A stretch of DNA of 64,000 bases from Eubacteriales bacterium (GTDB taxonomy: Bacteria; Bacillota; Clostridia; Oscillospirales; CAG-272), in contig JAZOLZ010000037.1 of assembly GCA_045653505.1 (NCBI GenBank), positions 25,263 through 89,262 of the forward strand, in the 5' to 3' direction. The notes below the pieces were generated by a model. That model searched no databases, had not been told where the DNA came from, and saw only the letters and a program-made list of their open reading frames with translations. The first letter of the stretch is position 1; each line of letters begins with the position of its first letter. This document shows, piece after piece, positions 49,829 through 64,000 of this stretch. The position numbers and the translations under genes were made by a program.

Positions 49829-51268
49829 ATGGAATACGTTTTACCGATTTTAGGAATTGCACTGATTGTGCTTGTTGCGGTGGTGATAATAAGGACGCTT
49901 ATGTTCAAGCCGCAGCCCAAAAAAGTACGTGAGGTAAAGGCTGTTACGGTCAACACAGAAAAGGCAGTAAACGATCTCGCAAAGATGATAAAATGCCGTA
50001 CGGTATCAAGTGTTGACAAGGCACTTGAGGACGAGGCTGAATTTGATAAATTTAAGAATACGCTGCCCAAACTCTTCCCAAATATTTACGAAAAGTGCGT
50101 ATTTGAGGAGGTGGGCGACAGAGGTCTGCTCTTTAAATATGAGGGCGAAAATCACGATGCGCCTACGGTGCTTATGTCACACTTTGACGTGGTAAGCGTC
50201 GAGGAGGATAAGTGGGAAAAACCACCCTTTGATGGGGTTTTTGAGGACGGATATCTCTGGGGACGCGGTACTCTTGACACCAAAGGAACACTCAATGCCG
50301 CGATGCACGCACTTGAGGAGCAGATTAAACTCGGCTTTAAGCCAAAGCAGGATATATATTTGGCATTTGGCGGCGACGAGGAGATAAACGGCCACGGCGC
50401 ACCTATGATAGTTGACCTTTTTGAACAAAGAAAGATTACCCCCGGCCTTGTGCTGGATGAGGGCGGCGCTGTGGTACAGGGCGTATTCCCCGGAGTTAAG
50501 GCTCCCTGCGCTGTTATAGGTATTGCCGAAAAGGGTATGCTTAATCTTGAATTCTCATACAGCGGTAACGGCGGCCACGCCTCGGCGCCAAAGCCTCATA
50601 CTCCCGTAGGAATTCTCAGTAAGGCCTGCTGCGATGTTGAAAATCATCCCTTTAAGTTCCGTATGACAAAGCCTGCTTTGGCTATGTTTGATACACTTGC
50701 AAGACACTCAAGTTTTCTTTACCGTATGATATTTGCCAATCTGTGGCTCTTTAGCGGTGTGCTAAACCTTATAGGCAAAATGAGTGGCGGTGAAATGAAC
50801 GCGCTGATGCGTACCACCTGTGCCTTTACGCAGATGGAGGGCTCAAAGGGTATGAACGTTATCCCGCCCTCGGCAAAAATGGTGGCAAACCTAAGACTTA
50901 TTGAGGGCGATACAGATGAAACCGCTATGGAATATATAAAAGGCGTTATCAAAAACGAGGATATCAAACTCACCAAGATAAGCGGTATGAACCCCTCTGT
51001 TATCTCAACACTCGAGTGCGAGGGATGGGAAAGAGTTAAAAATGCCGTAGGCGACACCTGGCAGGATGCTCTTGTATCTCCCTACCTCATGGTTGCCTGC
51101 AGTGACTCGCGCCACTGGGGCAGGATAAGCGATAAGGTCTACCGCTTCTCCGCTATGGCGCTTACAAAAGAGGAGCGTGGCTCTATCCACGGTAACAATG
51201 AAAAGATCGGCGTAGAGAATATTGAAAAATCAATTGAATTCTACACAAGACTGATACTTGAAAGTTAA
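49829..51268 (+). CDS. M20 family amidohydrolase/peptidase (carboxypeptidase S / PM20D1-like), membrane anchored
   Basis: SHFDVV, WGRGTLDTKG, DEE, LDEG, GGHAS, IHGNNE; N-terminal TM helix. Confidence 0.88.
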   Translation: MEYVLPILGIALIVLVAVVIIRTLMFKPQPKKVREVKAVTVNTEKAVNDLAKMIKCRTVSSVDKALEDEAEFDKFKNTLPKLFPNIYEKCVFEEVGDRGLLFKYEGENHDAPTVLMSHFDVVSVEEDKWEKPPFDGVFEDGYLWGRGTLDTKGTLNAAMHALEEQIKLGFKPKQDIYLAFGGDEEINGHGAPMIVDLFEQRKITPGLVLDEGGAVVQGVFPGVKAPCAVIGIAEKGMLNLEFSYSGNGGHASAPKPHTPVGILSKACCDVENHPFKFRMTKPALAMFDTLARHSSFLYRMIFANLWLFSGVLNLIGKMSGGEMNALMRTTCAFTQMEGSKGMNVIPPSAKMVANLRLIEGDTDETAMEYIKGVIKNEDIKLTKISGMNPSVISTLECEGWERVKNAVGDTWQDALVSPYLMVACSDSRHWGRISDKVYRFSAMALTKEERGSIHGNNEKIGVENIEKSIEFYTRLILES

Positions 51269-51274
51269 ATTTTT

Positions 51275-51314
51275 AATAATAAAAAGGGCGGAAAAATCCG
51301 CCCTTTTTATTATT
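51275..51314. terminator. Bidirectional terminator
   Basis: AATAATAAAAAGGGCGGA-AAAA-TCCGCCCTTTTTATTATT. Confidence 0.9.
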
Positions 51315-51340
51315 TTTGTTATCTTTTGTTTACAAAATAC

Positions 51341-51853
51341 CTATTTTTCGAGAGTTTCGTAAAGATTTATAATTTCTTTATTTTGCTCTTTCGCCATACG
51401 TACTGTCTGCATAGAACCGCTTTTTTCATTACCTACATAGGCTATCAGAAGTTCGCATACCGAGGCAAGCTCCTTGTTGCGGCGGCGCATACAGTCTAAG
51501 GTGTATTCATCGCTGACATAACGTATTTCACTTGCGTTTTTAAGGACATACTCATAGGCATCCCTTTGTGCCTCGTTCCATTTTTTATCCTGATTAATAC
51601 AGGGCAAAATGAGTACAAGACGCACGTCGGTGTGGGATAGAGAAAAGCGAATTACCTCTCTTGCCGCAAGCGTATCAAAGCCGACAGCGCCGCCAACGCA
51701 AAAGGTGCGATAGCCGTCAAGATAGGCATATTCTATTGACTTTTGCAAAAGCTCTGTAAGCCTTTTTGTATGCTCCTTTTTGATTATACGGTGTCCTGTA
51801 AAGGAGCACACTCTGTCATTTTCAAGGACACTCAACTGTCTTATACCCATCAC
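51341..51853 (-). CDS. SLOG superfamily protein (YpsA/DUF1273-like)
   Basis: SFTGHR, GGAVGFD, CMRRRN, SGSMQT. Confidence 0.8.
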   Translation of the reverse strand: MMGIRQLSVLENDRVCSFTGHRIIKKEHTKRLTELLQKSIEYAYLDGYRTFCVGGAVGFDTLAAREVIRFSLSHTDVRLVLILPCINQDKKWNEAQRDAYEYVLKNASEIRYVSDEYTLDCMRRRNKELASVCELLIAYVGNEKSGSMQTVRMAKEQNKEIINLYETLEK

Positions 51854-53805
51854 TCAAGCTCAAATGCGCCGGTATAGAGCTGATAGTAGGTGCCTTTTTC
51901 TGCAATAAGGGACTCGTGCGAGCCACGCTCAATAATTTTACCGTGGTCAAGCACCATTATTACGTCAGAGTTTTTAACTGTGGAAAGACGGTGCGCAATA
52001 ACAAATACCGTCCTGCCCTCCATAAGTTTATCCATACCCCTTGATACTATAGCCTCAGTACGTGTATCTATTGATGAGGTTGCCTCATCAAGTATCATTA
52101 CGGGTGGATCCGCAACTGCGCATCTTGCAATCGCAATAAGTTGTCTCTGTCCCTGAGAAAGGTTAGCGCCGTTATTTGCAAGGAGCGTATCATAGCCGTT
52201 TGGCAAACGGGTGATAAAATCATCAGCGCCTGCAAGCTTTGCCGCCTGGATACACTCTTCATCCGTAGCATTAAGTCTGCCATAGCGGATATTGTCCATT
52301 ACGGTACCCGTAAAGAGGTTTGTCTCCTGCAAAACGATACCGAGAGAACGACGCAAATCGTCCTTTTTTATCTTATTGATATTAATACCGTCATATCTTA
52401 TCTTGCCGTCTGCTATATCGTAGAAGCGATTGATAAGGTTTGTTACGGTTGTTTTACCCGCGCCTGTTGCGCCGACAAAGGCTACCTTTTGTCCGGGCTC
52501 TGCGTAAAGGGTGATATCTCTAAGGACGGGTTTGCCCTCCTCATAACAGAAGTCAACCTCATGCATTCTTACATCGCCCATAAGACGGGTGTTGGTAACT
52601 GTACCGTCGCCGTGCGGATGCTTCCACGCCCAGATGCCTGTGTGAGTATCGCTTTCCTTGATATTGCCATCTTCATCAACCGTAGCATCAACAAGAGTAA
52701 CGTAGCCGTCGTCAACCTCGGGTGTTTCATCCATGAGCTCAAGAATACGTTTTGTGCCCGCCATAGCCATAACTATGGAGTTTATCTGCTGAGAAAGTTG
52801 GTTGATATTACCGGTAAACTGCTTTGTCATGTTAAGAAAGGCTACTACAGCACCTATGGAGATGACCGATATGCCCGTAATTGTAAGGTTTGGAGCCTGA
52901 AGAAGAAGTAATATGCCGCCTACCGTTGCGAGAACAACGTACATTATATTACCTATATTCATGATAATGGGGCCAAGCATATTTGCGCAAGCGTTTGCCT
53001 TATAACTGCAGTTGAATAACTGATCGTTTATATTGTTGAAGTCTGAGATAACACGCTCTTCTCTTGAGAAGACCTTAACAACCTTTTGACCGTTAACCAT
53101 CTCCTGAATATAGCCCTCTGCCTGACCTACAGTGCGCTGAAGCCTTATAAAGAACTTTGCGCTGTTACCGCCTATGGTCTTTGAAACGAAGATCATAAGG
53201 CATACCGCAAGGAGTAAAAGCAGGGTAAGCCATACAGAGAATGATATCATAATTATGAATACTGTTATTACCGTTATGCTTGCCCTTATAAGTGTGGGAA
53301 GCGAACGGGAGATAAGTTCTCTTAAAGTATCAATATCATTGGTATAATAACTCATTATATCACCGTGTTTATGGGTATCAAAATACTTTATCGGAAGCTT
53401 TTGCATACCGTTAAACATCTTACTGCGCATCTTTGAAAGGAAGCCCTGGGTGATAAACGTGCTGAGCTGTGAGTCAAGTGTAAGAGAAATAATAGAGAGA
53501 ACATAAAGAGATGCAAGAATGATTACCTTAGGCAGTATCTCGTCATTAAAGATACTCATAGCGACTTCACTGTTCCACACTCCGCTTTCCTTTGCCGCTT
53601 TCGTAAATGCGGTGATAGAATTTATTATCTGCTCCATAAATACAGCAGGTATGCTGGATATGATAGCGGAGGCAACTATACAGCATATAGTTACCGGTAC
53701 AAGCACCGGGTAGAAGGAGAATAGCATTTTAATAATTCTGCCAAGACCGCCGCTTTTACCTATATTTTGTGAATTTTTATTTACATCTTTATGCATTTTT
53801 GCCAC
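51850..53805 (-). CDS. Heterodimeric ABC exporter subunit with canonical Walker B and H-switch
   Basis: TMD plus GATGAGKT, LSQGQRQ, LDEATS, AHRL. Confidence 0.92.
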   Translation of the reverse strand: MAKMHKDVNKNSQNIGKSGGLGRIIKMLFSFYPVLVPVTICCIVASAIISSIPAVFMEQIINSITAFTKAAKESGVWNSEVAMSIFNDEILPKVIILASLYVLSIISLTLDSQLSTFITQGFLSKMRSKMFNGMQKLPIKYFDTHKHGDIMSYYTNDIDTLRELISRSLPTLIRASITVITVFIIMISFSVWLTLLLLLAVCLMIFVSKTIGGNSAKFFIRLQRTVGQAEGYIQEMVNGQKVVKVFSREERVISDFNNINDQLFNCSYKANACANMLGPIIMNIGNIMYVVLATVGGILLLLQAPNLTITGISVISIGAVVAFLNMTKQFTGNINQLSQQINSIVMAMAGTKRILELMDETPEVDDGYVTLVDATVDEDGNIKESDTHTGIWAWKHPHGDGTVTNTRLMGDVRMHEVDFCYEEGKPVLRDITLYAEPGQKVAFVGATGAGKTTVTNLINRFYDIADGKIRYDGININKIKKDDLRRSLGIVLQETNLFTGTVMDNIRYGRLNATDEECIQAAKLAGADDFITRLPNGYDTLLANNGANLSQGQRQLIAIARCAVADPPVMILDEATSSIDTRTEAIVSRGMDKLMEGRTVFVIAHRLSTVKNSDVIMVLDHGKIIERGSHESLIAEKGTYYQLYTGAFELE

Positions 53806-55534
53806 CTCCTATAGTCTGCTGCTCATAAATCTCACGATAGATATCACAGCCGTCCATAAGCTCACTGTGGTTACCCTTTGCAATTATCTTGCCGCCGTCC
53901 ATAACTATGATAAGGTCAGAATCCATAACAGATGCAACACGCTGAGCGATAATGATTTTTGTAGTATCGGGAATGTAGGATTTAAAGCCCTGACGGATAA
54001 ATGCGTCGGTTTTTGTATCAACAGCGCTTGTTGAGTCGTCAAGGATAAGTATCTTTGGCCTTTTGATAAGCGCCCTTGCAATACAAAGTCTCTGCTTTTG
54101 TCCACCGGACACATTACTGCCACCCTGCTCTATCCAGGTATCATAACCGTCGGGAAAGCTGCTGACAAACTCGTGTGCCTGAGCAAGCGTTGCCGCCTCG
54201 ATAATCTCTTCGTCAGTTGCATTCTCGTTACCCCACTTGAGGTTATCACGGATAGTACCTGCAAAGAGCAGATTTTTTTGTAAAACAACTGCAACGGCAG
54301 ATCTTAAAGCCTCAATATCATATTCCCTTACATCCCTGCCGCCTACGTATACCGCGCCCTCGCTCGCATCATAAAGACGCGGAATCAACTGGATAAGAGT
54401 ACTTTTTGAAGAGCCTGTGCCACCAAGAATACCAACGGTCATACCGCTCTTTATCTCAAGATTTATCTCAGAAAGCGCGTTTTTCTTTGCATTTTTGCTA
54501 TATTTAAAGGAAACATCCTTAAATTCTATCGAACCGTCTTTTATTTCTTTTATCGCGTTTTCGGGACTTACTATATCAAGCTCCTCACACAGAACCTCAT
54601 CTATACGGCGCATAGATTCTACAGACATGGTAAGCATTACATATATCATCGAGAACATCATAAGTGACATAAGCACCTGGAAGCCGTAGGTCAGCATAGC
54701 CGACATATGTCCTACGTCAAGGGTACCCTCTATGCCCGATGAGAGAATTATGCTTGAACCAAGGGTGAGCACAAACACCATATTGAAATAGGTGCATACC
54801 TGCATAAGAGGAGATGTAAGAGCCACAATTCTCTCAGCAAAGGTGAAGTCCTTGCGTATCTCGTTGTTTGCCTTATCAAACTTTGCCTTTTCATATTCTT
54901 CTCTTGTAAAGCTCTTTACAACACGCATACCCCTTACGTTTTCCTCAACACTCTCGTTGAGTTTATCGTACTTTTTGAATACCGCGCGGAACTTTGGCAT
55001 AGCAATTCTCGATATTATAAGAAGGCCGGAAAACAAGACGGGAATAACTATTACGAAGGTAAAGGCAAGCTGACCACCCATAATGAATGCCATTGTTATG
55101 GAGAATATCATCATAAGGGGACTGCGCACCGCGGTGCGTATCAGCATCATAAATGACATCTGCACGTTGTTTACGTCGGTGGTAAGACGTGTAACAAGCG
55201 AGGTGGATGAAAACTTATCGGTATTGGCAAAGCTGTATGACTGTATCTTTGCAAAAACATCACTGCGTAAATTTCTTGCAAAGCCCGATGACGCTTTTGC
55301 TGAGGTAAAGCCCGCAGCACCGCCAAAGCAAAGCGATATGATTGCCATAAGCGCAAGTATAAGTCCTGTTACTATAACCTCGCCTATATCGGCGCCGTCC
55401 TTTATGCTGTTAACAAGTGATGCCGTTATAAACGGTATGGCACATTCAATTGCCGCCTCACCTATCATCAGAAAGAGCGTGATTAGAGCCGGCTTTTTGA
55501 ATTCTCTTAGAGACGAAAGAAGTCTTTTAATCAA
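53789..55534 (-). CDS. Heterodimeric ABC exporter subunit with degenerate Walker B and H-switch
   Basis: TMD plus GGTGSSKS, VSGGQKQ, LDDSTS, AQR (TM287/TM288-type asymmetry); TTG start. Confidence 0.92.
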   Translation of the reverse strand: MIKRLLSSLREFKKPALITLFLMIGEAAIECAIPFITASLVNSIKDGADIGEVIVTGLILALMAIISLCFGGAAGFTSAKASSGFARNLRSDVFAKIQSYSFANTDKFSSTSLVTRLTTDVNNVQMSFMMLIRTAVRSPLMMIFSITMAFIMGGQLAFTFVIVIPVLFSGLLIISRIAMPKFRAVFKKYDKLNESVEENVRGMRVVKSFTREEYEKAKFDKANNEIRKDFTFAERIVALTSPLMQVCTYFNMVFVLTLGSSIILSSGIEGTLDVGHMSAMLTYGFQVLMSLMMFSMIYVMLTMSVESMRRIDEVLCEELDIVSPENAIKEIKDGSIEFKDVSFKYSKNAKKNALSEINLEIKSGMTVGILGGTGSSKSTLIQLIPRLYDASEGAVYVGGRDVREYDIEALRSAVAVVLQKNLLFAGTIRDNLKWGNENATDEEIIEAATLAQAHEFVSSFPDGYDTWIEQGGSNVSGGQKQRLCIARALIKRPKILILDDSTSAVDTKTDAFIRQGFKSYIPDTTKIIIAQRVASVMDSDLIIVMDGGKIIAKGNHSELMDGCDIYREIYEQQTIGGGKNA

Positions 55535-55573
55535 TTTTCTTCTCCTTTATTTCTTTTTTTCTATCAAAGAGAT

Positions 55574-55602
55574 ATTTTACCATATCTGTATCTTTAAGTC
55601 AA
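55574..55602 (-). promoter_or_regulatory. SigA-type promoter of ABC exporter operon
   Basis: TTGACT-17 nt-TAAAAT with TG extension. Confidence 0.65.
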
Positions 55603-55674
55603 TAAAATGCGACCCATTTTTTGTGTTTAAGTTTTAAATATTTTGTTAATATATTATTTTATATATCCGACCTA

Positions 55675-55703
55675 TTGACATTTAGGATTTTTTGTGTTAT
55701 CAT
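55675..55703 (+). promoter_or_regulatory. SigA promoter of the CNNM-lgt operon
   Basis: TTGACA-17 nt-TATCAT with TG extension. Confidence 0.75.
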
Positions 55704-55752
55704 ATCTACAATCATTAATCGCCCGGGTGGGTGAAATTTTATGGAGGATATC

Positions 55753-55878
55753 ATGAACGACGGTACTGATGCAGACGGGAATTGTTGTCTCTGTACTAGA
55801 CTTTTATTTAAATATCTAGGCTTAGTCACGCCCAAAGAGAGCATGGCTACGCCTTTTTTTGCTTTCTTGCGCGAATAG
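55753..55878 (+). CDS. Putative leader peptide MNDGTDADGNCCLCTRLLFKYLGLVTPKESMATPFFAFLRE (41 aa)
   Basis: GGAGG 5 nt before ATG 55753; TAG at 55876-55878; below the ORF-track size cutoff. Confidence 0.55.
   Translation: MNDGTDADGNCCLCTRLLFKYLGLVTPKESMATPFFAFLRE
55818..55860 (+). terminator. Attenuator-type intrinsic terminator in the CNNM gene leader
   Basis: AGGC-T-TAGTCACGC-loop-GCATGGCTA-C-GCCT followed by a T run. Confidence 0.6.
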
Positions 55879-55965
55879 CTGCACACAAAAAACAAGACGA
55901 AATAACACACTTTTCTAAAGCATTTTAATTATTTTTAGAGCTTTGCTCGGAAGGAACTTTTTTAA

Positions 55966-57222
55966 ATGGAAATTACGATAATTGTTTTCTGTGTGATTAT
56001 GTCAGCATATTTTTCAGCCACAGAAACAGCGTTTTCAACATGCAACAAAATACGACTTAAAAACATAGCCGAAAAGGGCAACAAAAGTGCCACCCTCGCG
56101 CTACATTTAAGTGAAAATTACGACAAGCTGCTCTCTGCAATACTTGTCGGCAACAACATTGTAAACATTCTTGCAACATCGGTTGCAACAATATTCTTTA
56201 TCAGACTGCTTAATAACGACCAAAATCTCGGCTCGACTATTTCGACGGTAGTTATGACGGTGGCTGTGCTTATTTTTGGTGAAATATCGCCCAAGAGCAT
56301 TGCAAAGAAATATCCCGAGAAGTTTTCTATGTTCTCTGCTCCCATTATGAGAGCGATAATGTTTATCCTTACCCCAGTTACCTTTATCTTCGGTCTTTGG
56401 CAAAAACTGCTCTCCAAAATATTTAAGGAAGATGATGAGCAGGGTATTACCGAAGAGGAACTTATCTCAATTATCGAGGAGGCCGAGGAGGACGGCGGTA
56501 TAAATGAGGAAGAAAGCGAACTCATCAAGAACGCTATAGAATTCAACGACCTTGAGGTTGGCGATATCTTTACTCCCCGTATTGACGTTACCTCTGTACC
56601 CTCAAATATCTCAAAGGATGAACTTGCTAAGGTGTTTGCGGACACAGGCTTCTCACGTCTGCCCGTATATGAAAAGAGCCCTGATAATATAGTAGGTATC
56701 TTCTACCACAAGGACTTCTTTAACACGGCATTTACCACAAAAGTAAGTTTGAAATCGATTATTAAGCCGGTTATATTTGTAGCGATGAGCATGAATATAC
56801 GCGACCTTTTGAACGAACTGCAGGAAAAACAGTTGCACCTTGCCGTTGTGCTTGACGAATACGGCTCCTGCGCAGGTATAGTAACACTTGAGGATATCCT
56901 TGAAGAAATCGTTGGCGAAATATGGGATGAGCACGACGAGGTTGTCGAGGAAATCAAGAAAATTAACGACAAGGAATACATTGTATCGGGTAAGGCAAAC
57001 ATAGAAAAGGTGCTTGATATGTTTGATATCACCGAGGAGCCGGATTCCTTTACCACTAACGGCTGGGCTATGGATATGCTCGGACGTATGCCCGAGGAGG
57101 GTGACAGGTTTGAATACCTTGGCCTTGAGGTTGAGGTTATCAAGACCGACGGACGTATTGTTGAAAACCTCAGAATCGTTGACACAAGAGAAGACGAGGA
57201 TGAGGAAAAGGATAAGGACTGA
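55966..57222 (+). CDS. CNNM/CorB-CorC ('hemolysin family') Mg2+ transport protein: DUF21 + CBS pair + CorC_HlyC
   Basis: SAYFSATETAF, GNNIVN, FGEISPK, FSRLPVY, DEYG..GIVTLEDILEEIVGEIWDE. Confidence 0.92.
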   Translation: MEITIIVFCVIMSAYFSATETAFSTCNKIRLKNIAEKGNKSATLALHLSENYDKLLSAILVGNNIVNILATSVATIFFIRLLNNDQNLGSTISTVVMTVAVLIFGEISPKSIAKKYPEKFSMFSAPIMRAIMFILTPVTFIFGLWQKLLSKIFKEDDEQGITEEELISIIEEAEEDGGINEEESELIKNAIEFNDLEVGDIFTPRIDVTSVPSNISKDELAKVFADTGFSRLPVYEKSPDNIVGIFYHKDFFNTAFTTKVSLKSIIKPVIFVAMSMNIRDLLNELQEKQLHLAVVLDEYGSCAGIVTLEDILEEIVGEIWDEHDEVVEEIKKINDKEYIVSGKANIEKVLDMFDITEEPDSFTTNGWAMDMLGRMPEEGDRFEYLGLEVEVIKTDGRIVENLRIVDTREDEDEEKDKD

Positions 57223-57248
57223 TTTTTGTCCTAAACTAAGGAGGTTTT

Positions 57249-58031
57249 ATGTTACCTAATCCTATTTTTCTTAACGTACATATGTACGGAATTATGATTG
57301 CGGCAGGTCTGCTCTGCTGCTTTATAGTACTCTTTACCTACTCAAAAAAGATGGGTATTGACGAAAAATTCGTTGACTTTGTGTTTTACACCGGTGTTGC
57401 CGCTATAGTTATAGGCTTTGGCTCGGCAACCCTTTTCCAGACCTTCTACAACTTCCTTGAAAGCGGAGTGTGGCGCTGGGGCGGCATGACCTTCCTTGGC
57501 GGTCTTATAGGCGGCGTTATCAGTTTCCTTATCATCTACTCTATATTCAAGTTTGGTCTTAAGCGTGAGATGAAGCTGTACAGAATCCTCTCACTTGTAC
57601 CCTGCTGTATCCTTGTGGCGCACGGCTTTGGCAGAATAGGTTGCTTCTTTGCAGGCTGCTGCTACGGCATTGAGACAGACTCATTTTTAGGAGTTAAGTT
57701 CCCTGCCCTGCCCAACCCCGTACATCCCACAATGCTTTATGAGGCGGCATTCCTCTTTATTATGTTCGCCGTTTGCTCCTTCCTTGTACTCAAGATAGGC
57801 TTTAGACACAATCTCTCGCTCTATCTTCTTTCATACGGCATCTTCCGTTTCCTTATTGAGTATATAAGAGGCGATGAAAGAGGCGAATTCTTCCTTGAAA
57901 TATTCTCCCCCTCACAGGTACAGTCTATAATTATGATACTACTGTGCGTGCCCGTATTCCTACTTATTGAGTACCTTTATCATATCGACGGTGAAAAGTC
58001 GGTATTTGATAAAAAAATCTCTCAAGAATAA
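57249..58031 (+). CDS. lgt: Prolipoprotein diacylglyceryl transferase (Lgt family)
   Basis: YGIMI, GGMTFLGG, GRIGCFFAGCCYG, HPTMLYE, YGIFRFLIEYIR. Confidence 0.8.
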   Translation: MLPNPIFLNVHMYGIMIAAGLLCCFIVLFTYSKKMGIDEKFVDFVFYTGVAAIVIGFGSATLFQTFYNFLESGVWRWGGMTFLGGLIGGVISFLIIYSIFKFGLKREMKLYRILSLVPCCILVAHGFGRIGCFFAGCCYGIETDSFLGVKFPALPNPVHPTMLYEAAFLFIMFAVCSFLVLKIGFRHNLSLYLLSYGIFRFLIEYIRGDERGEFFLEIFSPSQVQSIIMILLCVPVFLLIEYLYHIDGEKSVFDKKISQE

Positions 58032-58046
58032 AAAGGAGAAAATATT

Positions 58047-59051
58047 ATGAAAATAAAGAACATTTTAAAACTCATTCTCATAGCATCTCTTGCATTATCT
58101 ATTCTGTTCCTCGGCAGTTGTCAGATCCTTGACAGCCTTAAAAAGCAGGACAAGAAAGAGGAAGAAGATAAAACAGTCCTTGCAGAGCAAAGAGGCAGCT
58201 TTGATGACATAACGGTTGCTTATTTTGGTGAGAGTAAGGAAAAGGTTATTGACCTTGACAGAAAGGTTAAGAAAAACGGCACCGAAGTAACATACGAAGT
58301 ATCCTCATCAAACAAGAGTATAGTAGGCGTAAGCGAAAAGGACGGTGAACTTACAGTAACCGTAAAGGGTGTCGGTAAGGCAACCGTTACAGTCGACGTC
58401 TTCTCTGATGAAAAAGAGGCCTTTAGCGCAGAATTTGAGGTTACCTCAAAAAAATACACCAAAATAGCCTGCATAGGCGACAGTCTGACCTATGGTCACA
58501 CATGGACAGATGAAGCATATCCCGTTTATTTAAGCGAACTTTTTGCTGAACTTGACAGTGATATTGAGGTAAAAAATTTTGGTGTGAACGGCGCGTCCCT
58601 TACAGGCATCAAGCCCCAGAACAGCGCTCTTACAAAATATGAGGACAGCGCTAAGTATGACGAGAGCATTGATTATAACCCCGATATCGTTGTTATCCTT
58701 TTAGGAACTAATGACGTTAACGGCTGGGAGCTTGGCGCAAAAGAGGTATTCGTTGACAGATACTACGATCTCATTGCTACTTATACAAACAAAAATCCCG
58801 ATGCTAAGGTAGTTGTTGTTACACCTCCCACAGTTGAAGAGGGCAACTCACTCAATAAGCACAAGGGTATGATAGATGAAGAAATTTATCCTGCAGTCTT
58901 AAGCGGCGCTATGGGTGACTACTGTGTTGACTTCCACGCATTTGTAGAGAGCTTCAGTGGTGAAAAATTCCGCGAGGACGGTGTACATCTCTCCGCTGCC
59001 CTTGCAAACGAACTTGCAAAGCTTGTATACGATGCAATAGTTAGTATTTGA
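58047..59051 (+). CDS. Lipoprotein with Ig-like domain and SGNH/GDSL hydrolase domain
   Basis: Lipobox LGSC; GDSLT, NFGVNG, GTND, DGVH. Confidence 0.85.
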   Translation: MKIKNILKLILIASLALSILFLGSCQILDSLKKQDKKEEEDKTVLAEQRGSFDDITVAYFGESKEKVIDLDRKVKKNGTEVTYEVSSSNKSIVGVSEKDGELTVTVKGVGKATVTVDVFSDEKEAFSAEFEVTSKKYTKIACIGDSLTYGHTWTDEAYPVYLSELFAELDSDIEVKNFGVNGASLTGIKPQNSALTKYEDSAKYDESIDYNPDIVVILLGTNDVNGWELGAKEVFVDRYYDLIATYTNKNPDAKVVVVTPPTVEEGNSLNKHKGMIDEEIYPAVLSGAMGDYCVDFHAFVESFSGEKFREDGVHLSAALANELAKLVYDAIVSI

Positions 59052-59082
59052 TTTTTTTCAAATCTTTGTTTACATTTTAATA

Positions 59083-59120
59083 GAAAAAGAGCCACGCTTT
59101 GCAGCGTGGCTCTAATTTTT
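59083..59120. terminator. Bidirectional terminator
   Basis: AGAGCCACGCT-TTGC-AGCGTGGCTCT with A and T runs on the flanks. Confidence 0.85.
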
Positions 59121-59130
59121 TAATTATGCT

Positions 59131-61809
59131 TTATTTTGCCTTTTTAGCATTTATTCTTGCTTCTACGAACTTCCAGATCTCCATTACAACGAAGGGAGCA
59201 AGAGCGAGAGCTGCAGCCACAAGATACTTCCACCAGTCAAGATATACAAGGTTGAATGCGCCCTGTACACCGGGAACAAATACTACGAACATTACAAGCA
59301 AAGCAGATGCTATACAAGCAAGGTTGAGGTTTTTGTTACCGAAGAAGCCGATCTTAAAGAGTGAGTGCTCAGAACGCATATTGAAGCTCTGCACAAGCTG
59401 AAGAAGTGCAAGAACCATAAATGCCAGCGTCTGACCCTGTGATGCGATCTGTGCGGTTTCAGGTGTGCCCCAAGCTGCAGTAAACATATCTGCAAATGAA
59501 AGACCTGTACCGATCCAGAATGCGAGGATCGAAATAAGACCGAACATAAGACCCTGTACAACTACCTTATAGCCAAGACCGTTTGCAAAGATGCCCTCAT
59601 CCTTAGGCTTGGGCTTTTGCTGCATAACGTCACTTTCAACTGCCTCCATACCGAGCGCAATAGCGGGAAGAGAGTCTGTTACAAGGTTGATCCAGAGAAG
59701 CTGCATTGATTCAAGAGGAGAAATACCCCAAAGAATTGTAGCAAGGAATACGGTTATGATCTCACCTACGTTTGTACCAAGAAGGAAGCCAACAACCTTT
59801 TTGATGTTAGCATAAATGCCTCTACCCTCTTTAACCGCATCAACAATTGTAGCAAAGTTGTCATCGGTAAGAGTCATATCAGCCGCGCCCTTAGCAACGT
59901 CTGTACCTGTAATACCCATAGCGCATCCGATATCAGCCGCCTTAAGAGCGGGAGCATCGTTAACACCGTCACCGGTCATAGAAACTACCTGACCCTTGCG
60001 CTGCCATGCCTTAACGATACGGATCTTGTTCTCGGGAGATACACGCGCGTAAACTGAAATTGTGGGAAGAACAGCATCAAGTTCTTCATCGCTCATAGCA
60101 TCAAGTTCTACACCCATTACAGACTTGTCACCCTCAACGAAGATGCCAAGCTCCTTAGCAATAGCGGTAGCGGTAACAACGTGGTCACCTGTGATCATAA
60201 TGGGCTTAATGCCTGCCTCACGGCAAACTGCAACTGCTGCCTTTGCCTCAGGACGGGGCGGGTCTATCATACCTACAAGGCCTAAGAAGGTAAGGCCGTT
60301 TTCGAGTGTCTCGGAGGTGATCTCAGCAGGGAGTTCGTCAATCTCCTTGTATGCAACCGCAAGAACACGAAGAGCGTCAGAGCTCATCTGCTCGTTCTTA
60401 GCCTTTGCTACTACGAAGTCACCGCATACACAGCGGCTCTCCATCATATCAACTGCACCCTTAACAATAACGATCTTCTTGCCGTCGATAACGTTAACCG
60501 TACTCATAAGCTTACGCTCGGAGTCGAAGGGGAGTTCTGCAATACGGGGATACTTATTATTAAGATCTTCCTTGGTCATACCGTTTTTGTATGCCGCAAC
60601 AACGATCGCTGTCTCTGTGGGGTCACCGATGTGTGTTTCCTTACCGTCCTCGGCAAAGGTTACAGAACCGTCACAGCAAAGGGTTGACCATGCAAGAAGC
60701 TGCTTTGCTTTATCTGTGTTTTCGTTACTTACTGTCTCAAGGTCCTCATCGCCTGCTACGTATACCTTAGTAAGGGTCATACGGTTCATAGTGAGCGTAC
60801 CTGTCTTATCCGAACAGATAACAGATGCACTACCAAGTGTCTCAACTGCAGGGAGTTTTCTTATAATCGCGTTCTTCTTTACCATTCTCTGTACGCCGAT
60901 GGAAAGCACGATAGTAACTATCGCAGGCAGACCCTCAGGGATAGCAGAAACTGCAAGGGATACCGCAATCATAAACATATGAAGGATATTGTGGTCATGG
61001 CCGAAAAGACCTACTACGAATACTATTGCACAAGCTGCAAGAGCTACTATACCGAGAATCTGACCGAGTTTTGCAAGCTTTTGCTGAAGAGGTGTATCAC
61101 CCTCCTCCTCACCTGCAAGAAGGTTAGCAATCTTACCCATCTCGGTGTCCATACCGGTGCCTGTAACAACTGCAAGCGCAGTACCGTAGGTTATTGTACA
61201 GCCGGAGAATACCATGTTGTGTCTGTCACCAACGGTTGCATCCTCTTTTACCTCTGCAAAAGCGTCCTTTTCACTGGGAACGGACTCACCTGTAAGAGCA
61301 GATTCCTCACTCTTAAGGGATACGCTCTTAAGAAGTCTTGCGTCAGCAGGAACAAAATCGCCTGCCTCAAGAAGGATAATATCGCCGGGAACAAGATCAG
61401 AGGCGTTAATGATCTTTTCCTCGCCGTCTCTTATAACTCTTGCGTGAGGAGCAGACATGTTTTTAAGCGCATCAAGCGCCTTCTCTGCCTTGCTCTCCTG
61501 TACTACGCCCATAATCGCGTTAAGTACAACGATAAGAAGTATAAGACCGGGCTCGAAAAGCTCGCCCCAATTCTGCTCATAGCAAATAACCACTGTGGAA
61601 ATTGCCGCAGCAATAAGAAGAATAATGATCATAACGTCCTTGAACTGCTCCAAGAAGCGCTCAAACATTGTCTTTTTCTTCTTTTCTTTGAGTTTGTTTT
61701 CACCGTATTTTTCGGTGCGCGCCGCTACCTCAGCACTGCTAAGACCCTTGACTTTGTCGGTTTCAAGTGCTTTGAGAACGTTTTCGGCGCTGTCGCTGTA
61801 AAAGTTCAT
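59131..61809 (-). CDS. P2A-type cation (Ca2+-like) transporting ATPase
   Basis: TGES, IPEGL, CSDKTGTLT, KGA, GDGVND, LWINLVTD. Confidence 0.92.
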   Translation of the reverse strand: MNFYSDSAENVLKALETDKVKGLSSAEVAARTEKYGENKLKEKKKKTMFERFLEQFKDVMIIILLIAAAISTVVICYEQNWGELFEPGLILLIVVLNAIMGVVQESKAEKALDALKNMSAPHARVIRDGEEKIINASDLVPGDIILLEAGDFVPADARLLKSVSLKSEESALTGESVPSEKDAFAEVKEDATVGDRHNMVFSGCTITYGTALAVVTGTGMDTEMGKIANLLAGEEEGDTPLQQKLAKLGQILGIVALAACAIVFVVGLFGHDHNILHMFMIAVSLAVSAIPEGLPAIVTIVLSIGVQRMVKKNAIIRKLPAVETLGSASVICSDKTGTLTMNRMTLTKVYVAGDEDLETVSNENTDKAKQLLAWSTLCCDGSVTFAEDGKETHIGDPTETAIVVAAYKNGMTKEDLNNKYPRIAELPFDSERKLMSTVNVIDGKKIVIVKGAVDMMESRCVCGDFVVAKAKNEQMSSDALRVLAVAYKEIDELPAEITSETLENGLTFLGLVGMIDPPRPEAKAAVAVCREAGIKPIMITGDHVVTATAIAKELGIFVEGDKSVMGVELDAMSDEELDAVLPTISVYARVSPENKIRIVKAWQRKGQVVSMTGDGVNDAPALKAADIGCAMGITGTDVAKGAADMTLTDDNFATIVDAVKEGRGIYANIKKVVGFLLGTNVGEIITVFLATILWGISPLESMQLLWINLVTDSLPAIALGMEAVESDVMQQKPKPKDEGIFANGLGYKVVVQGLMFGLISILAFWIGTGLSFADMFTAAWGTPETAQIASQGQTLAFMVLALLQLVQSFNMRSEHSLFKIGFFGNKNLNLACIASALLVMFVVFVPGVQGAFNLVYLDWWKYLVAAALALAPFVVMEIWKFVEARINAKKAK

Positions 61810-61980
61810 CTTTTTCTCCTTTTGAATTTATATTTATTTTTTGCGATTTTTGCGAAAATAATACCCCGAGTGTGGTTTTTAAGCATCGCTCAGGGTTAAA
61901 CAACACGGGAATAACTCGAGTGGGTATTATAAAATTACCTTAGTAAGTTGATCCTTTGTTAACAATTAAATATCAAGGTT

Positions 61981-62009
61981 ATTTTAGCACTTTATATTTT
62001 ATCTGTCAA
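61981..62009 (-). promoter_or_regulatory. SigA promoter of the P-type ATPase
   Basis: TTGACA-17 nt-TAAAAT with TG extension. Confidence 0.75.
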
Positions 62010-62182
62010 GAGTTTTAATAAAATTATCTATTGCGCGTGCGCGCGTGCGCAAGTAAAATTCAAAAAAAAGAAAAAACAACATTTTCAAAAGTGAACACAA
62101 TACTAAAAGCGAATTGTTCCAAAAACAACAATAGAATCGCTGAAAAGGTCAACTTTATTTTACATTTTTCGATAAAACAATA

Positions 62183-62237
62183 AAAAAACACCGATATTAC
62201 TGCAGTGAGTATAATTACTGCTTTATCGGTGTTTTTT
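62183..62237 (-). terminator. Terminator after fakA
   Basis: AAAAAACACCGATA...TATCGGTGTTTTTT. Confidence 0.75.
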
Positions 62238-62252
62238 GTTATTGTTACGTTT

Positions 62253-64000
62253 TTATTCTGCTACGCAAATGTAGGAATATATGTCTTGACCGCCCTCGGA
62301 GAAATACAGCTCTTTATCAGGATACGTCTCTCTTATATAGGCCTCAAGCGCCTCTGTTTCCTCTGCTATAGCGTCCTTACCTACGAATACGGTAAGCATA
62401 AACTTACCCTCTTCTGAGAGCATTTTTGTGACAAGCGCCCTTGCCGCATCCATCCTCTCCTTCTCTGAAACAACTATTTCCTTTTCAATAATACCTATGG
62501 TATCGCCGTTGTTTATATGGATACCGTTTATCTCGGCATCTCTTATAGAGGGTGAAAGATAGCCTGTTTTTACGTTAGCCATAACCTCGCTCATACCGTC
62601 AAGCACAGCATCAACGTCAGGATTGTCAAAATCAAGACTGCTGAGCGCTACGTAGCCTGTACCCATAAACTTTGATGGTACGATATGCACCTTTGCCTCA
62701 GTATAAAGTTCTGCTGCCTGTGTGGAGGCCATAAATATGTTTGAGTTATTAGGGAATACAAAGATATGCTCTGCGTTTATCTTACCAAACGCCTCAATAA
62801 AGTCCTGTGTTGAGGGGTTGTGGGTCTGACCGCCCTCAATAACTATATCAGTACCGAGATCCTTGTAAAGGGATACAAGGCCCTCACCGTTTGCAACGGC
62901 AACTACACCGTATCTCTTTTTTGGCTCATCCTTTTTATCTTCACTTTTTACCTCGGGGACGGCAAATGCTGAGGGAGTTGACTGCTCTGCCGCGCCCTTG
63001 GGCTCATCGGCGCTCTCGGTATGCTGCAGCGACATATTCTCAATCTTGACAGTGAGAAATTCACCGAAGTTTAAACAATGCGAAAGCACTGCGCCGGGGT
63101 TAAAGGTATGCACGTGTACCTTAACTATAGAATCGTTTTTGAAGGCAACTATAGAGTCACCCGCACCCTTAAGATAGTCTTTAAGTGCCTCAATGTCAAA
63201 TTCATCTATCTTGCACTTTGCATGAGTGAGTTGAAGTAAAAACTCTGTGCAGTAGCCGTATTCCATAACGCTATCGGCCGTAAAGGTACCCTGATGAGCG
63301 GGTGCGCCTGCGGGCTTTTTAGCACTTACCTTAGCGCCTGCGATCTTTTCGCCGTTAAGGGCACGGTTGAAGCCGTCCATAATGTAGAAAAGACCTGCTC
63401 CGCCGCTGTCTACAACGCCTGCCTCCTTAAGAACTGCAAGTATCTCGGGAGTACGGTCAACCGATGCGTGCATCTCATCAACAAGGTCTGCAAAGAAGGT
63501 GTTGATGGTGCTCTTGGGCGTAATTCTCTTTACCGCATATTCAACTGCCTCTCTGGCAACGGTAAGAATAGTACCCTCTGTAGGTGTCATAACCGAGGAA
63601 TATGCCTGCTTTACGCCTAGTTCAAGAGCCTTACCAAGCGTCTCGGGGTCTGCCTTTTTATTCGACTCAAGACCCTTTGATATTCCTGCAAAGAACTGAG
63701 AAAGGATAACACCTGAGTTACCTCTTGCGCCAAGGAGCATACCGTGAGAGAGCGCATTGGTAACCTTTGCAAGGTCGTTTGATTCAATGGCCTCCATCTC
63801 CTCAATACCGCTCTCGATAGTCATACGCATATTATCACCCGTATCACCGTCGGGAACAGGGAAAACGTTAAGTCTGTTTACCTCATCAGCCTTGTCACTG
63901 AGTTGATTTGAACCACCGATAGCCATCTTTTTAAAGAACCAACCGCTAAGGAACTTAAGACCGCCCTTTTCGCCGTCCTTTTTGTCCTTTTGCTTTGCAC
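62253..64000 (-). CDS. fakA: DAK2-domain fatty acid kinase subunit A; 5' end outside window
   Basis: LNVFPVPDGDTG, GARGNSGVILSQ, GVVDSGG, YGYCTE, VHVHT, GGQ; frame stays open to base 64000. Confidence 0.9.
   Translation of the reverse strand, partial: AKQKDKKDGEKGGLKFLSGWFFKKMAIGGSNQLSDKADEVNRLNVFPVPDGDTGDNMRMTIESGIEEMEAIESNDLAKVTNALSHGMLLGARGNSGVILSQFFAGISKGLESNKKADPETLGKALELGVKQAYSSVMTPTEGTILTVAREAVEYAVKRITPKSTINTFFADLVDEMHASVDRTPEILAVLKEAGVVDSGGAGLFYIMDGFNRALNGEKIAGAKVSAKKPAGAPAHQGTFTADSVMEYGYCTEFLLQLTHAKCKIDEFDIEALKDYLKGAGDSIVAFKNDSIVKVHVHTFNPGAVLSHCLNFGEFLTVKIENMSLQHTESADEPKGAAEQSTPSAFAVPEVKSEDKKDEPKKRYGVVAVANGEGLVSLYKDLGTDIVIEGGQTHNPSTQDFIEAFGKINAEHIFVFPNNSNIFMASTQAAELYTEAKVHIVPSKFMGTGYVALSSLDFDNPDVDAVLDGMSEVMANVKTGYLSPSIRDAEINGIHINNGDTIGIIEKEIVVSEKERMDAARALVTKMLSEEGKFMLTVFVGKDAIAEETEALEAYIRETYPDKELYFSEGGQDIYSYICVAE

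Follow-up and report, generated by a model that had tools for sequence, protein, structure and literature searches.

How CNNM/CorB-type Mg2+ exporters are induced is largely obscure, and the locus described here puts the question in a concrete form: what does a short acidic reading frame do between a promoter and an exporter gene when an intrinsic terminator lies in its path? The locus belongs to a 64,000-nucleotide (nt) stretch of DNA from an Eubacteriales bacterium (GenBank assembly GCA_045653505.1, contig JAZOLZ010000037.1, positions 25,263 to 89,262), referred to below as the window; positions are those of the window and features lie on its forward (+) strand unless stated otherwise. A gene for a CNNM/CorB-type transporter of 418 amino acids (55966..57222) is preceded by a leader that contains an upstream open reading frame (uORF, 55753..55878) and an intrinsic terminator (55819..55860). 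A first-pass annotation, made by a model from the letters of the DNA, had proposed a Mg2+-sensing leader-peptide attenuator. We consider a translation-gated terminator upstream of the CNNM gene highly probable, and we give the full model, which includes sensing of Mg2+ or other cations by ribosome destabilisation, a probability of roughly 0.5. The element would offer a concrete and testable mechanism of exporter induction in a large group of gut anaerobes.

Conservation of the leader element

In a protein search, the CNNM gene was located in 79 of 81 genomes of the genus, and the upstream DNA was studied for 43 orthologues at 58–67% identity in addition to the window's own gene. Two N-terminal partial hits (G101:C50 and G100:C15), three C-terminal fragments and two orthologues at 45–47% identity (G017 and G032) were left out of this upstream survey. 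All 44 orthologues (at least 58% identity, own gene included) carry the element, with promoter, 5′ hairpin, ribosome-binding site (RBS), uORF and terminator in the same order. Within the genus the uORF starts with the pattern M-D-D-(G/A/D)-x-D-(G/A)-(D/E/N)-(T/N/S)-C, followed by an AT-rich stretch, and the terminator has the arms AGGCTTAGCC...GGTTATGCC and a T run. Six further orthologues at 45–50% identity divide evenly, three having the element with the peptide MD(A/G)DSS(D/E)(T/D)D(Y)C and three being without it. This is the conservation upstream of orthologous CNNM genes that the first-pass annotation had proposed looking for.

A covariance model built from 47 leaders was searched against samples of 151 genomes each from the family, the order and the class. 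A match was counted as real if an acidic uORF and a terminator were present in an intergenic leader. The family sample gave 23 matches besides the window, 13 of them real and in other genera; the order sample gave 18 new matches, 11 of them real and in other families. The class sample gave six new matches, with one real leader, in another order, among the five full-length ones (the sixth, partial, was left out). The remaining matches are gene-end terminators or lie inside coding DNA, e.g. gyrB. The cross-match with the gyrB coding motif ..IMADADVDG.. (L101, L240 and L242) is a predictable false positive of a model rich in Asp codons.

The real matches lie upstream of CNNM genes in 22 of 25 cases; these belong to several paralogue groups and their products are 24–55% identical to that of the window. 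The acidic leader class extends beyond CNNM genes, since the other three leaders precede a P-type II cation ATPase of 900 amino acids, in three different families. The ATPase-linked leaders have the form MDD(A/G)D..RSN.. (L096, L226/L271 and L238; in the second, the uORF lies near L226:1517-1576 and the ATPase gene at L271:345-3047). In NCBIfam the ATPase matches the PMR1- and SERCA-type Ca2+ ATPases best, with neither score reaching the cut-off. Every one of the 25 model-found leaders, like every genus-level leader, precedes the gene of a predicted cation exporter, either CNNM or P-type II ATPase.

A pattern scan of genome contigs gave at least eight real leaders among the 80 loci listed, the rest being chance matches, mostly in high-GC coding DNA. 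The real leaders among the matches listed are from metagenome-assembled genomes labelled Clostridia, Eubacteriales or uncultured Ruminococcus, and some of the isolate names refer to the gut of sheep or roe deer; among the matches listed, none could be traced to a cultured carrier. BLAST of the leader DNA against 61 relatives returned short weak matches only, several of them just upstream of CNNM orthologues.

The whole genome (1.73 Mb, both strands) was also scanned for short ORFs with an RBS, at least three Asp/Glu and no more than one bulky or basic residue in positions 2–9, and a terminator placed as in the leaders. Four ORFs passed; three are C-terminal tails of long genes, and the sole intergenic one is this leader. 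By the same criteria, none of 20 regions upstream of CNNM paralogues that lack the leader, all from this genus, has an acidic uORF. Leaderless paralogues such as L251, L258, L266 and L075/L080 have short 5′ untranslated regions. The proteins of several start with MDPSS, MDPSG or MGSDS, and this combination of Asp/Pro with small residues recalls the destabilising N-terminus of E. coli YbeX that is discussed below.

Position of the stop codon relative to the terminator

The terminator of the window comprises a stem-loop (55819-55853) and seven T (55854-55860). Its hairpin has a ΔG of −12.7 kcal/mol in the minimum-energy fold and was missed by a simple terminator scan; the median over 71 leaders, 24 of them from outside the genus, is −17.1 kcal/mol. 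In the RNAalifold alignment, five of the eight terminator pairs show compensatory changes, with one pair being GC in 21 sequences and AU in 17. The terminator described by the first-pass annotation is thus confirmed, and the uORF passes through it as had been noted, ending 18 nt after the T run.

Reading through the terminator holds for the window, but it is not the general form of the leader. In 13 of the 71 leaders, window included, the stop codon lies beyond the terminator. The other 58 stop at the 5′ arm or inside the arm or loop, between +11 and −30 nt relative to the first base of the stem: the stop codon ends 0–11 nt before the stem in 27 and within the 5′ arm or the loop in 31, often as the TAG of the conserved GGCTTAGCC. 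The read-through of the window is therefore the minority form of one design.

The common property of this design is a uORF that does not end early. In none of the 71 leaders does the stop codon end more than 11 nt upstream of the stem. The corresponding number is 48 of 71 in frame +1 and 57 of 71 in frame +2, and 39.5% of leaders with shuffled spacers have such an early stop. Put differently, the uORF frame is open up to the terminator in 71/71 leaders, as compared to 23/71 and 14/71 for the other two frames. The stem starts 49–94 nt (median 61) and the T run 83–133 nt after the ATG, and the spacer between codon 11 and the stem has a median length of 31 nt.

The leader peptide

The ATG at 55753 is located four nt 3′ of the RBS GGAGGA (55743..55748), which is conserved in the homologues, and opens a frame of 41 codons plus a stop codon (55876-55878) that encodes MNDGTDADGNCCLCTRLLFKYLGLVTPKESMATPFFAFLRE; the peptide begins MNDGTDADGNCCLC. 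The ORF listing gives a longer form of 45 amino acids (55741-55878). Its ATG at 55741, retained as an alternative start in the first-pass annotation, overlaps the RBS and is present in no homologue, whereas the ATG at 55753 is common to all.

The uORF is read as peptide-coding because several features of the alignment agree. The ATG at the aligned position is invariant in 47/47 genus-level leaders, although the spacer that separates it from the RBS differs among homologues in both sequence and length while the RBS itself is kept. In the N-terminal part, alignment gaps come in multiples of three, and third positions vary where codons are four-fold degenerate. Leaders from other genera have Glu in place of Asp and different codons (e.g. 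MESAEGDC, MDNAEEDEC and MDSDSSDEEN), so that the same kind of peptide is encoded with GAA, GAG, AGT, AGC and GCN. Finally, the frame is kept open to the terminator. The uORF with a GGAGG RBS reported in the first-pass annotation accordingly looks like a conserved leader that would be translated.

Only about ten residues at the start are conserved. The C-terminal parts defy alignment, and the length of the peptide varies from 13 to 47 residues. Over the 71 leaders, residues 2–9 comprise 45% Asp/Glu and 47% Gly/Ala/Ser/Thr/Cys, with basic residues at 1% and bulky ones at 2%; residues 10–17 are 5% acidic and 37% bulky. The acidic N-terminus, to which the first-pass annotation had drawn attention, is the conserved portion of the uORF. 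Codons 2–11 (55756..55785), rich in Asp and small residues with Cys at the end, are the proposed sensor. Although Asp codons are enriched in the uORFs, the downstream genes are those of predicted cation exporters and not of Asp biosynthesis. The glycine codon GGG, rare in the CNNM genes, stands mostly as GAC-GGG-GAY in the uORFs (55756-55785 in the window and the homologous codons), a pattern that the peptide model does not explain.

The composition of residues 2–9 agrees with the published rule for intrinsic ribosome destabilisation (IRD), in which the translating ribosome is destabilised early by N-terminal Asp, Glu or Pro combined with small residues within roughly the first ten codons, at a stage when nothing yet fills the exit tunnel (bioRxiv 10.1101/2021.02.02.429294). 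IRD is counteracted by bulky residues and enhanced by low Mg2+ and by loss of bL31 (bioRxiv 10.1101/2021.02.02.429294).

The downstream transporter

The product of the downstream gene has a CNNM (DUF21) domain (PF01595, 9.2e-54), two CBS domains (PF00571, 3e-18) and a CorC_HlyC domain (PF03471, 3.7e-14), and its best solved relatives are MtCorB (7m1t) and TpCorC (7cff). The Mg2+ site of TpCorC is formed by Ser43, Ser47, Asn90, Gly129 and Glu130 (PMC7875539). In the alignment, all five are kept in the window protein as S13, S17, N63, G105 and E106, as are P109 and K110. The assignment of the gene to the CNNM family in the first-pass annotation is therefore upheld by both domains and site residues. 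Against the NCBIfam equivalog models, the protein stays under the cut-off for both PaeA (polyamine export; score 182, cut-off 500) and CorC (score 125, cut-off 379). It is encoded by the sole CNNM gene found in the 83%-complete genome.

Proposed mechanism

Our data suggest a ribosome-mediated transcription attenuator that would work without an antiterminator. The strong promoter would yield a leader RNA encoding a short peptide whose first ten or so residues are Asp/Glu and small residues. A ribosome that passes through the acidic stretch close behind RNA polymerase would reach the end of the uORF and cover the 5′ arm of the terminator. The masked hairpin could not form, and RNA polymerase would go on to transcribe the CNNM exporter gene (ON). 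With translation aborted or delayed, the hairpin would form and end transcription at about 55860 (OFF). Abortive translation of the acidic N-terminus would be expected at low Mg2+. The signal would be whatever stabilises the ribosome, i.e. free Mg2+ and perhaps polyamines or other divalent cations, with the exporter induced by cation excess. The nascent chain would thus test whether the ribosome holds together, and only then would the ribosome mask the terminator.

Masking of this kind has been observed at the E. coli terminator tR2, where a shift in stop-codon distance from 28 to 5 bp upstream lowered termination from ~90% to <10% (PMC4824070). The effect of the stop codon was abolished without translation, and folding of the hairpin was estimated to require that 10–15 nt of RNA between it and the A site be free (PMC4824070).

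We infer that the exporter would be ON at high Mg2+, which is the most coherent reading given the IRD-like N-terminus, the published proposal for ybeX/corC and the retained Mg2+-site residues of TpCorC. The first-pass annotation had arrived at the same polarity, in which a ribosome that gets through turns the exporter ON, and this fits both the lack of early stops (0/71) and the Mg2+-site residues of the CNNM protein. It had also taken this polarity to be undescribed, which needs correction: Chadani et al. had already suggested this logic for the ybeX/corC N-terminus, whereby more Mg2+ would give a stabler ribosome, less abortion, more ybeX expression and more Mg2+ efflux (bioRxiv 10.1101/2021.02.02.429294). 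A paper on Salmonella CorC and MgpA repeats the ybeX proposal and calls the regulation of corC and mgpA otherwise unclear (PMC12421838). What is sensed could instead be polyamines or divalent cations other than Mg2+; the CNNM protein also resembles the PaeA model (below cut-off), and three of the leaders precede a Ca2+-ATPase-like pump.

Several considerations weigh against this model. The attenuator function is read from the sequence of the leaders, and Mg2+ as its signal is suggested by the composition of the peptide and by published work in E. coli; transport of Mg2+ by the CNNM protein is likewise a prediction. The peptide composition is partly circular for the 24 extra-genus leaders, as the covariance model was trained on Asp-rich leaders and the start codons of these 24 were chosen by the presence of at least two Asp/Glu in residues 2–9. 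Related genomes are also non-independent samples. We know of no demonstration of IRD in Firmicutes, and transcription–translation coupling is reported to be weak in Bacillus subtilis. With the T run merely 83–133 nt past the ATG, the first ribosome would have to trail the polymerase very closely. In E. coli, efficient termination has been reported for terminators located in the initial 100 bp of coding regions (PMC4824070). The leaders therefore lie where the outcome of the race is uncertain, which suits a sensor but demands tight coupling. Codon usage adds a further difficulty. GAC makes up 84% of the Asp codons in the uORFs compared to 62% in the CNNM genes, GGG 42% of the Gly codons compared to 2%, and TGT 86% of the Cys codons compared to 36%. 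Since this bias exceeds what a pure peptide constraint would impose, the RNA sequence or particular codons must also matter. A Cys within residues 5–12, after the acidic run, is found in 60/71 leaders and is not explained by IRD.

Alternative explanations

The codon bias and the conserved Cys bear on the possibility that the same architecture answers to another signal. This could be translation capacity or a translation factor (an EttA/Uup-type ABCF protein or EF-P that acts on acidic N-termini, and with it the energy state), the supply of Asp-, Gly- or Cys-tRNA, or the decoder of the rare GGG codon. The architecture would fit any signal that alters the speed or completeness of leader translation. 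EttA has been linked to acidic N-termini. It regulates ribosome pausing (PMC11282234). The preference for GGG, GAC and TGT points to effects at the level of codons, and NGG codons near the 5′ end are suppressive via peptidyl-tRNA drop-off (PMC12204400). On the other hand, the model-found and genus-level leaders all precede predicted cation exporters, and genes concerned with amino acids, tRNA or translation are absent from their targets. Stalling at or before codon 10 would also make the ribosome leave the terminator unreached, given the median of 31 nt between codon 11 and the stem. Starvation would thus turn the exporter off, for which there is no evident logic. We regard a signal of this kind as unlikely, although it deserves serious consideration.

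A second possibility is that the conserved G-rich stretch (GACGACGG..GACGGGGA) acts as RNA, either as a riboswitch aptamer or as a site for a protein that recognises GAC repeats, and controls the terminator with the ORF being incidental. Within the genus, third positions too are strongly conserved at the nucleotide level. Codons 2–3 are GAC almost without exception, GAC triplets repeat at close spacing, and GGG and TGT are used in excess. Against this stand the searches for RNA structure in the leader. No family of Rfam 15, including M-box, yybP-ykoY and NiCo, matched the leader (55600-55970) at E-values up to 1 in a permissive scan of 50000-64000, which excludes the known riboswitches (M-box, NiCo and yybP) that the first-pass annotation had wanted checked. 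The RNAalifold consensus structure of the leader alignment consists of the terminator only. The fold of the whole leader in the window is no better than that of shuffled sequences (z −0.35); the above-chance feature is conservation and not the fold of the window sequence.

Two sets of hairpins were considered and rejected. Those internal to the uORF (ACGG/CCGT and GAC/GTC, including the one at 55763-55796 pointed out in the first-pass annotation) pair in 66.9%, 87.7% and 68.9% of cells, with covariation not above that of shuffles. The second candidate was an antiterminator formed with the 5′ arm of the terminator, of which the CTAGA/TCTAG pairing at 55796-55819 in the first-pass annotation is an example. 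Pairing with the arm is no better than for shuffled upstream RNA (mean z +0.62, with 1/71 leaders below −2). Both hairpins of the first-pass annotation do appear in the fold of the window, but they are not conserved and have no detectable role as alternative structures. There is no sign of an aptamer or an antiterminator in the leader. As no antiterminator was found in the consensus fold or in the test of 5′-arm pairing, the trp/his-type subclass of attenuator does not fit.

An incidental ORF is also at odds with the gaps in multiples of three, the invariant ATG behind a variable spacer, the frame that stays open where the other two do not, and the use of GAA, GAG, AGT, AGC and GCN for the same kind of peptide in other genera. 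We consider control by the RNA itself very unlikely.

The small ORF might instead encode a working micro-protein, such as a metal-binding peptide or a protein that partners or regulates the transporter, with the terminator a leaky gene end. MgtS and MgtR are enterobacterial small proteins that modulate Mg2+ transporters, and Asp and Cys are metal ligands. This is nevertheless highly improbable, because only the first ten or so residues are conserved, the length ranges from 13 to 47 with C-terminal parts that cannot be aligned, the C-terminus is a mere translation of the terminator in 13/71 leaders, and it is where the stop codon lies relative to the terminator that is conserved rather than the end of the peptide. 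Equally improbable is the opposite polarity, with leader translation promoting termination, or a constitutive partial terminator that senses nothing: the polarity proposed here is a prediction and complete leader translation does favour termination in classical trp-type attenuators, but the former would require an antiterminator for the ribosome to disrupt, which was not found, and a ribosome that occupies the 5′ arm of the terminator itself could do nothing but impede folding of the hairpin (PMC4824070), while the latter would make a conserved acidic ORF held open to the terminator needless.

Promoter, 5′ region and genomic surroundings

The leader is preceded by a sigma-70-type promoter (55675..55703) with TTGACA (55675-55680), a 17-nt spacer and TATCAT (55698-55703), extended by a TG at 55695-55696. 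It scores 11/12 in a consensus scan. A match in a single sequence is weak evidence, as five promoter-like sites were found compared with 3.1 ± 1.8 in shuffles; the homologous leaders have a median score of 12/12 and thereby support the promoter proposed in the first-pass annotation. The transcript should start near 55710.

Close to this start, a stem-loop (55719..55734) is followed by a U-rich stretch. Homologues have a hairpin at the matching place with differing sequences (median z −2.0; 30 of the 41 scored leaders are below −1.5). It is probably a stabilising 5′ hairpin, a role suggested by its position. At the other end of the leader, the spacer between terminator and CNNM start (55861..55965) contains the uORF stop codon and the RBS of the CNNM gene, GGAAGGAA (55950-55957); its sequence is not conserved among homologues.

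The lgt gene for prolipoprotein diacylglyceryl transferase (57249..58031) starts 27 nt downstream of the CNNM gene and may be co-transcribed with it. Neither corA nor an M-box (RF00380) was found in the 83%-complete genome. Its one mgtE gene (G000:C16, L250:330-540) has a leader of ~100 nt with neither M-box nor uORF.

Two further observations concern the surroundings. A divergent promoter-like sequence on the − strand (55574-55602; TTGACT, 17 nt, TAAAAT, with TG; 10/12) faces a pair of ABC-transporter genes (51850-55534, − strand). At 51174-51342, a cluster of weak Rfam matches on both strands coincides with a GC-rich hairpin between an A run and a T run, which looks like a bidirectional intrinsic terminator rather than a small RNA.

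Implications

The occurrence of similar leaders before several CNNM paralogue groups and a P-type II ATPase allows a wider, tentative proposal. Gut Clostridia may sense an excess of cations by means of leader peptides in which Asp and small residues abound, which would act via ribosome stability to switch on divalent-cation exporters; we hold this to be possible, though somewhat short of an even chance. If true, the element would be the first natural attenuator to be switched on by high Mg2+ and the first IRD-based sensor outside enterobacteria. It would also represent a small 'ribosome-stability regulon' of the kind on which Chadani et al. speculated (bioRxiv 10.1101/2021.02.02.429294), and IRD would be extended from an observation in E. 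coli to a conserved sensing principle in Gram-positive bacteria. Control of the exporter would depend on whether the translating ribosome stays intact, which is just what Mg2+ safeguards. The leaders would exemplify natural, direct masking of a terminator in which the peptide sequence is the sensor, and would yield a compact ~150-nt part responsive to an excess of cations. For genome annotation, unannotated ORFs of 13–47 codons would be marked as real features.

Relation to known regulatory systems

The literature searched, including PMC2965389 (a term look-up in the available text), holds no account of an Asp-rich leader peptide with a terminator upstream of CNNM or P-type ATPase genes. Related systems share parts of the design.

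One Mg2+-responsive system of Firmicutes is the M-box (ykoK), in which Mg2+ also controls an intrinsic terminator ahead of a gene for a Mg2+ transporter, within its leader; such a response is predicted for the present leader. The M-box is an RNA aptamer without an ORF that turns importers OFF at high Mg2+, and it has no match in this leader. YoaL of Salmonella and E. coli is, like the uORF, a leader peptide upstream of a gene (mgpA/yoaE) for a CorC-domain protein that protects against excess Mg2+, and loss of its start codon lowers translation of MgpA (PMC12421838). It differs in overlapping the upstream region of its gene and acting on translation; neither a terminator nor an acidic N-terminus is mentioned in the available text (PMC12421838).

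There is also a likeness to MgtL, the mgtA leader peptide. In Salmonella and E. coli, a short leader ORF with the acidic start MEPDPT sets transcription of a Mg2+ transporter gene by Mg2+-dependent abortive translation (bioRxiv 10.1101/2021.02.02.429294). The output is reversed, as MgtL turns an importer ON at low Mg2+ and the present leader is predicted to turn an exporter ON at high Mg2+. The route to the output also differs. MgtL acts through alternative stem-loops of the leader, whereas no alternative structure was found here and direct masking of the terminator is proposed. The two belong to different phyla and, as judged on the first six residues of MgtL (MEPDPT), are alike in composition only, with no evident sequence relationship; we treat the leader as an analogue of MgtL and not as a homologue. 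The N-terminus of E. coli YbeX/CorC (MSDDNSHSSDT) similarly combines Asp and small residues at the very start and is linked to a CorC-family Mg2+ efflux protein. There the motif begins the structural protein and acts on its own translation; here a separate leader ORF and a terminator would give a transcriptional output.

The output itself has a counterpart in the pyrBI attenuator of E. coli, where a leader ORF runs through an intrinsic terminator, a ribosome close behind the polymerase prevents the hairpin and no antiterminator is needed. The window uORF and 12 other leaders read through in the same manner, and the remaining 58 stop close to or within the hairpin. The signal at pyrBI is polymerase pausing that depends on uridine triphosphate, and the sequence of the peptide is irrelevant; the acidic peptide N-terminus, the conserved feature of the present leaders, argues for a different signal. 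In the tR2 test system, an engineered E. coli system without a natural sensor, a translated stop codon a few bp upstream nearly abolishes termination (PMC4824070), and all 71 leaders place their stop codon in accordance with this distance rule. Neither a trp-type attenuator nor a known riboswitch, the leader would combine a sensor logic like that of MgtL and the YbeX N-terminus with an output logic like that of pyrBI.

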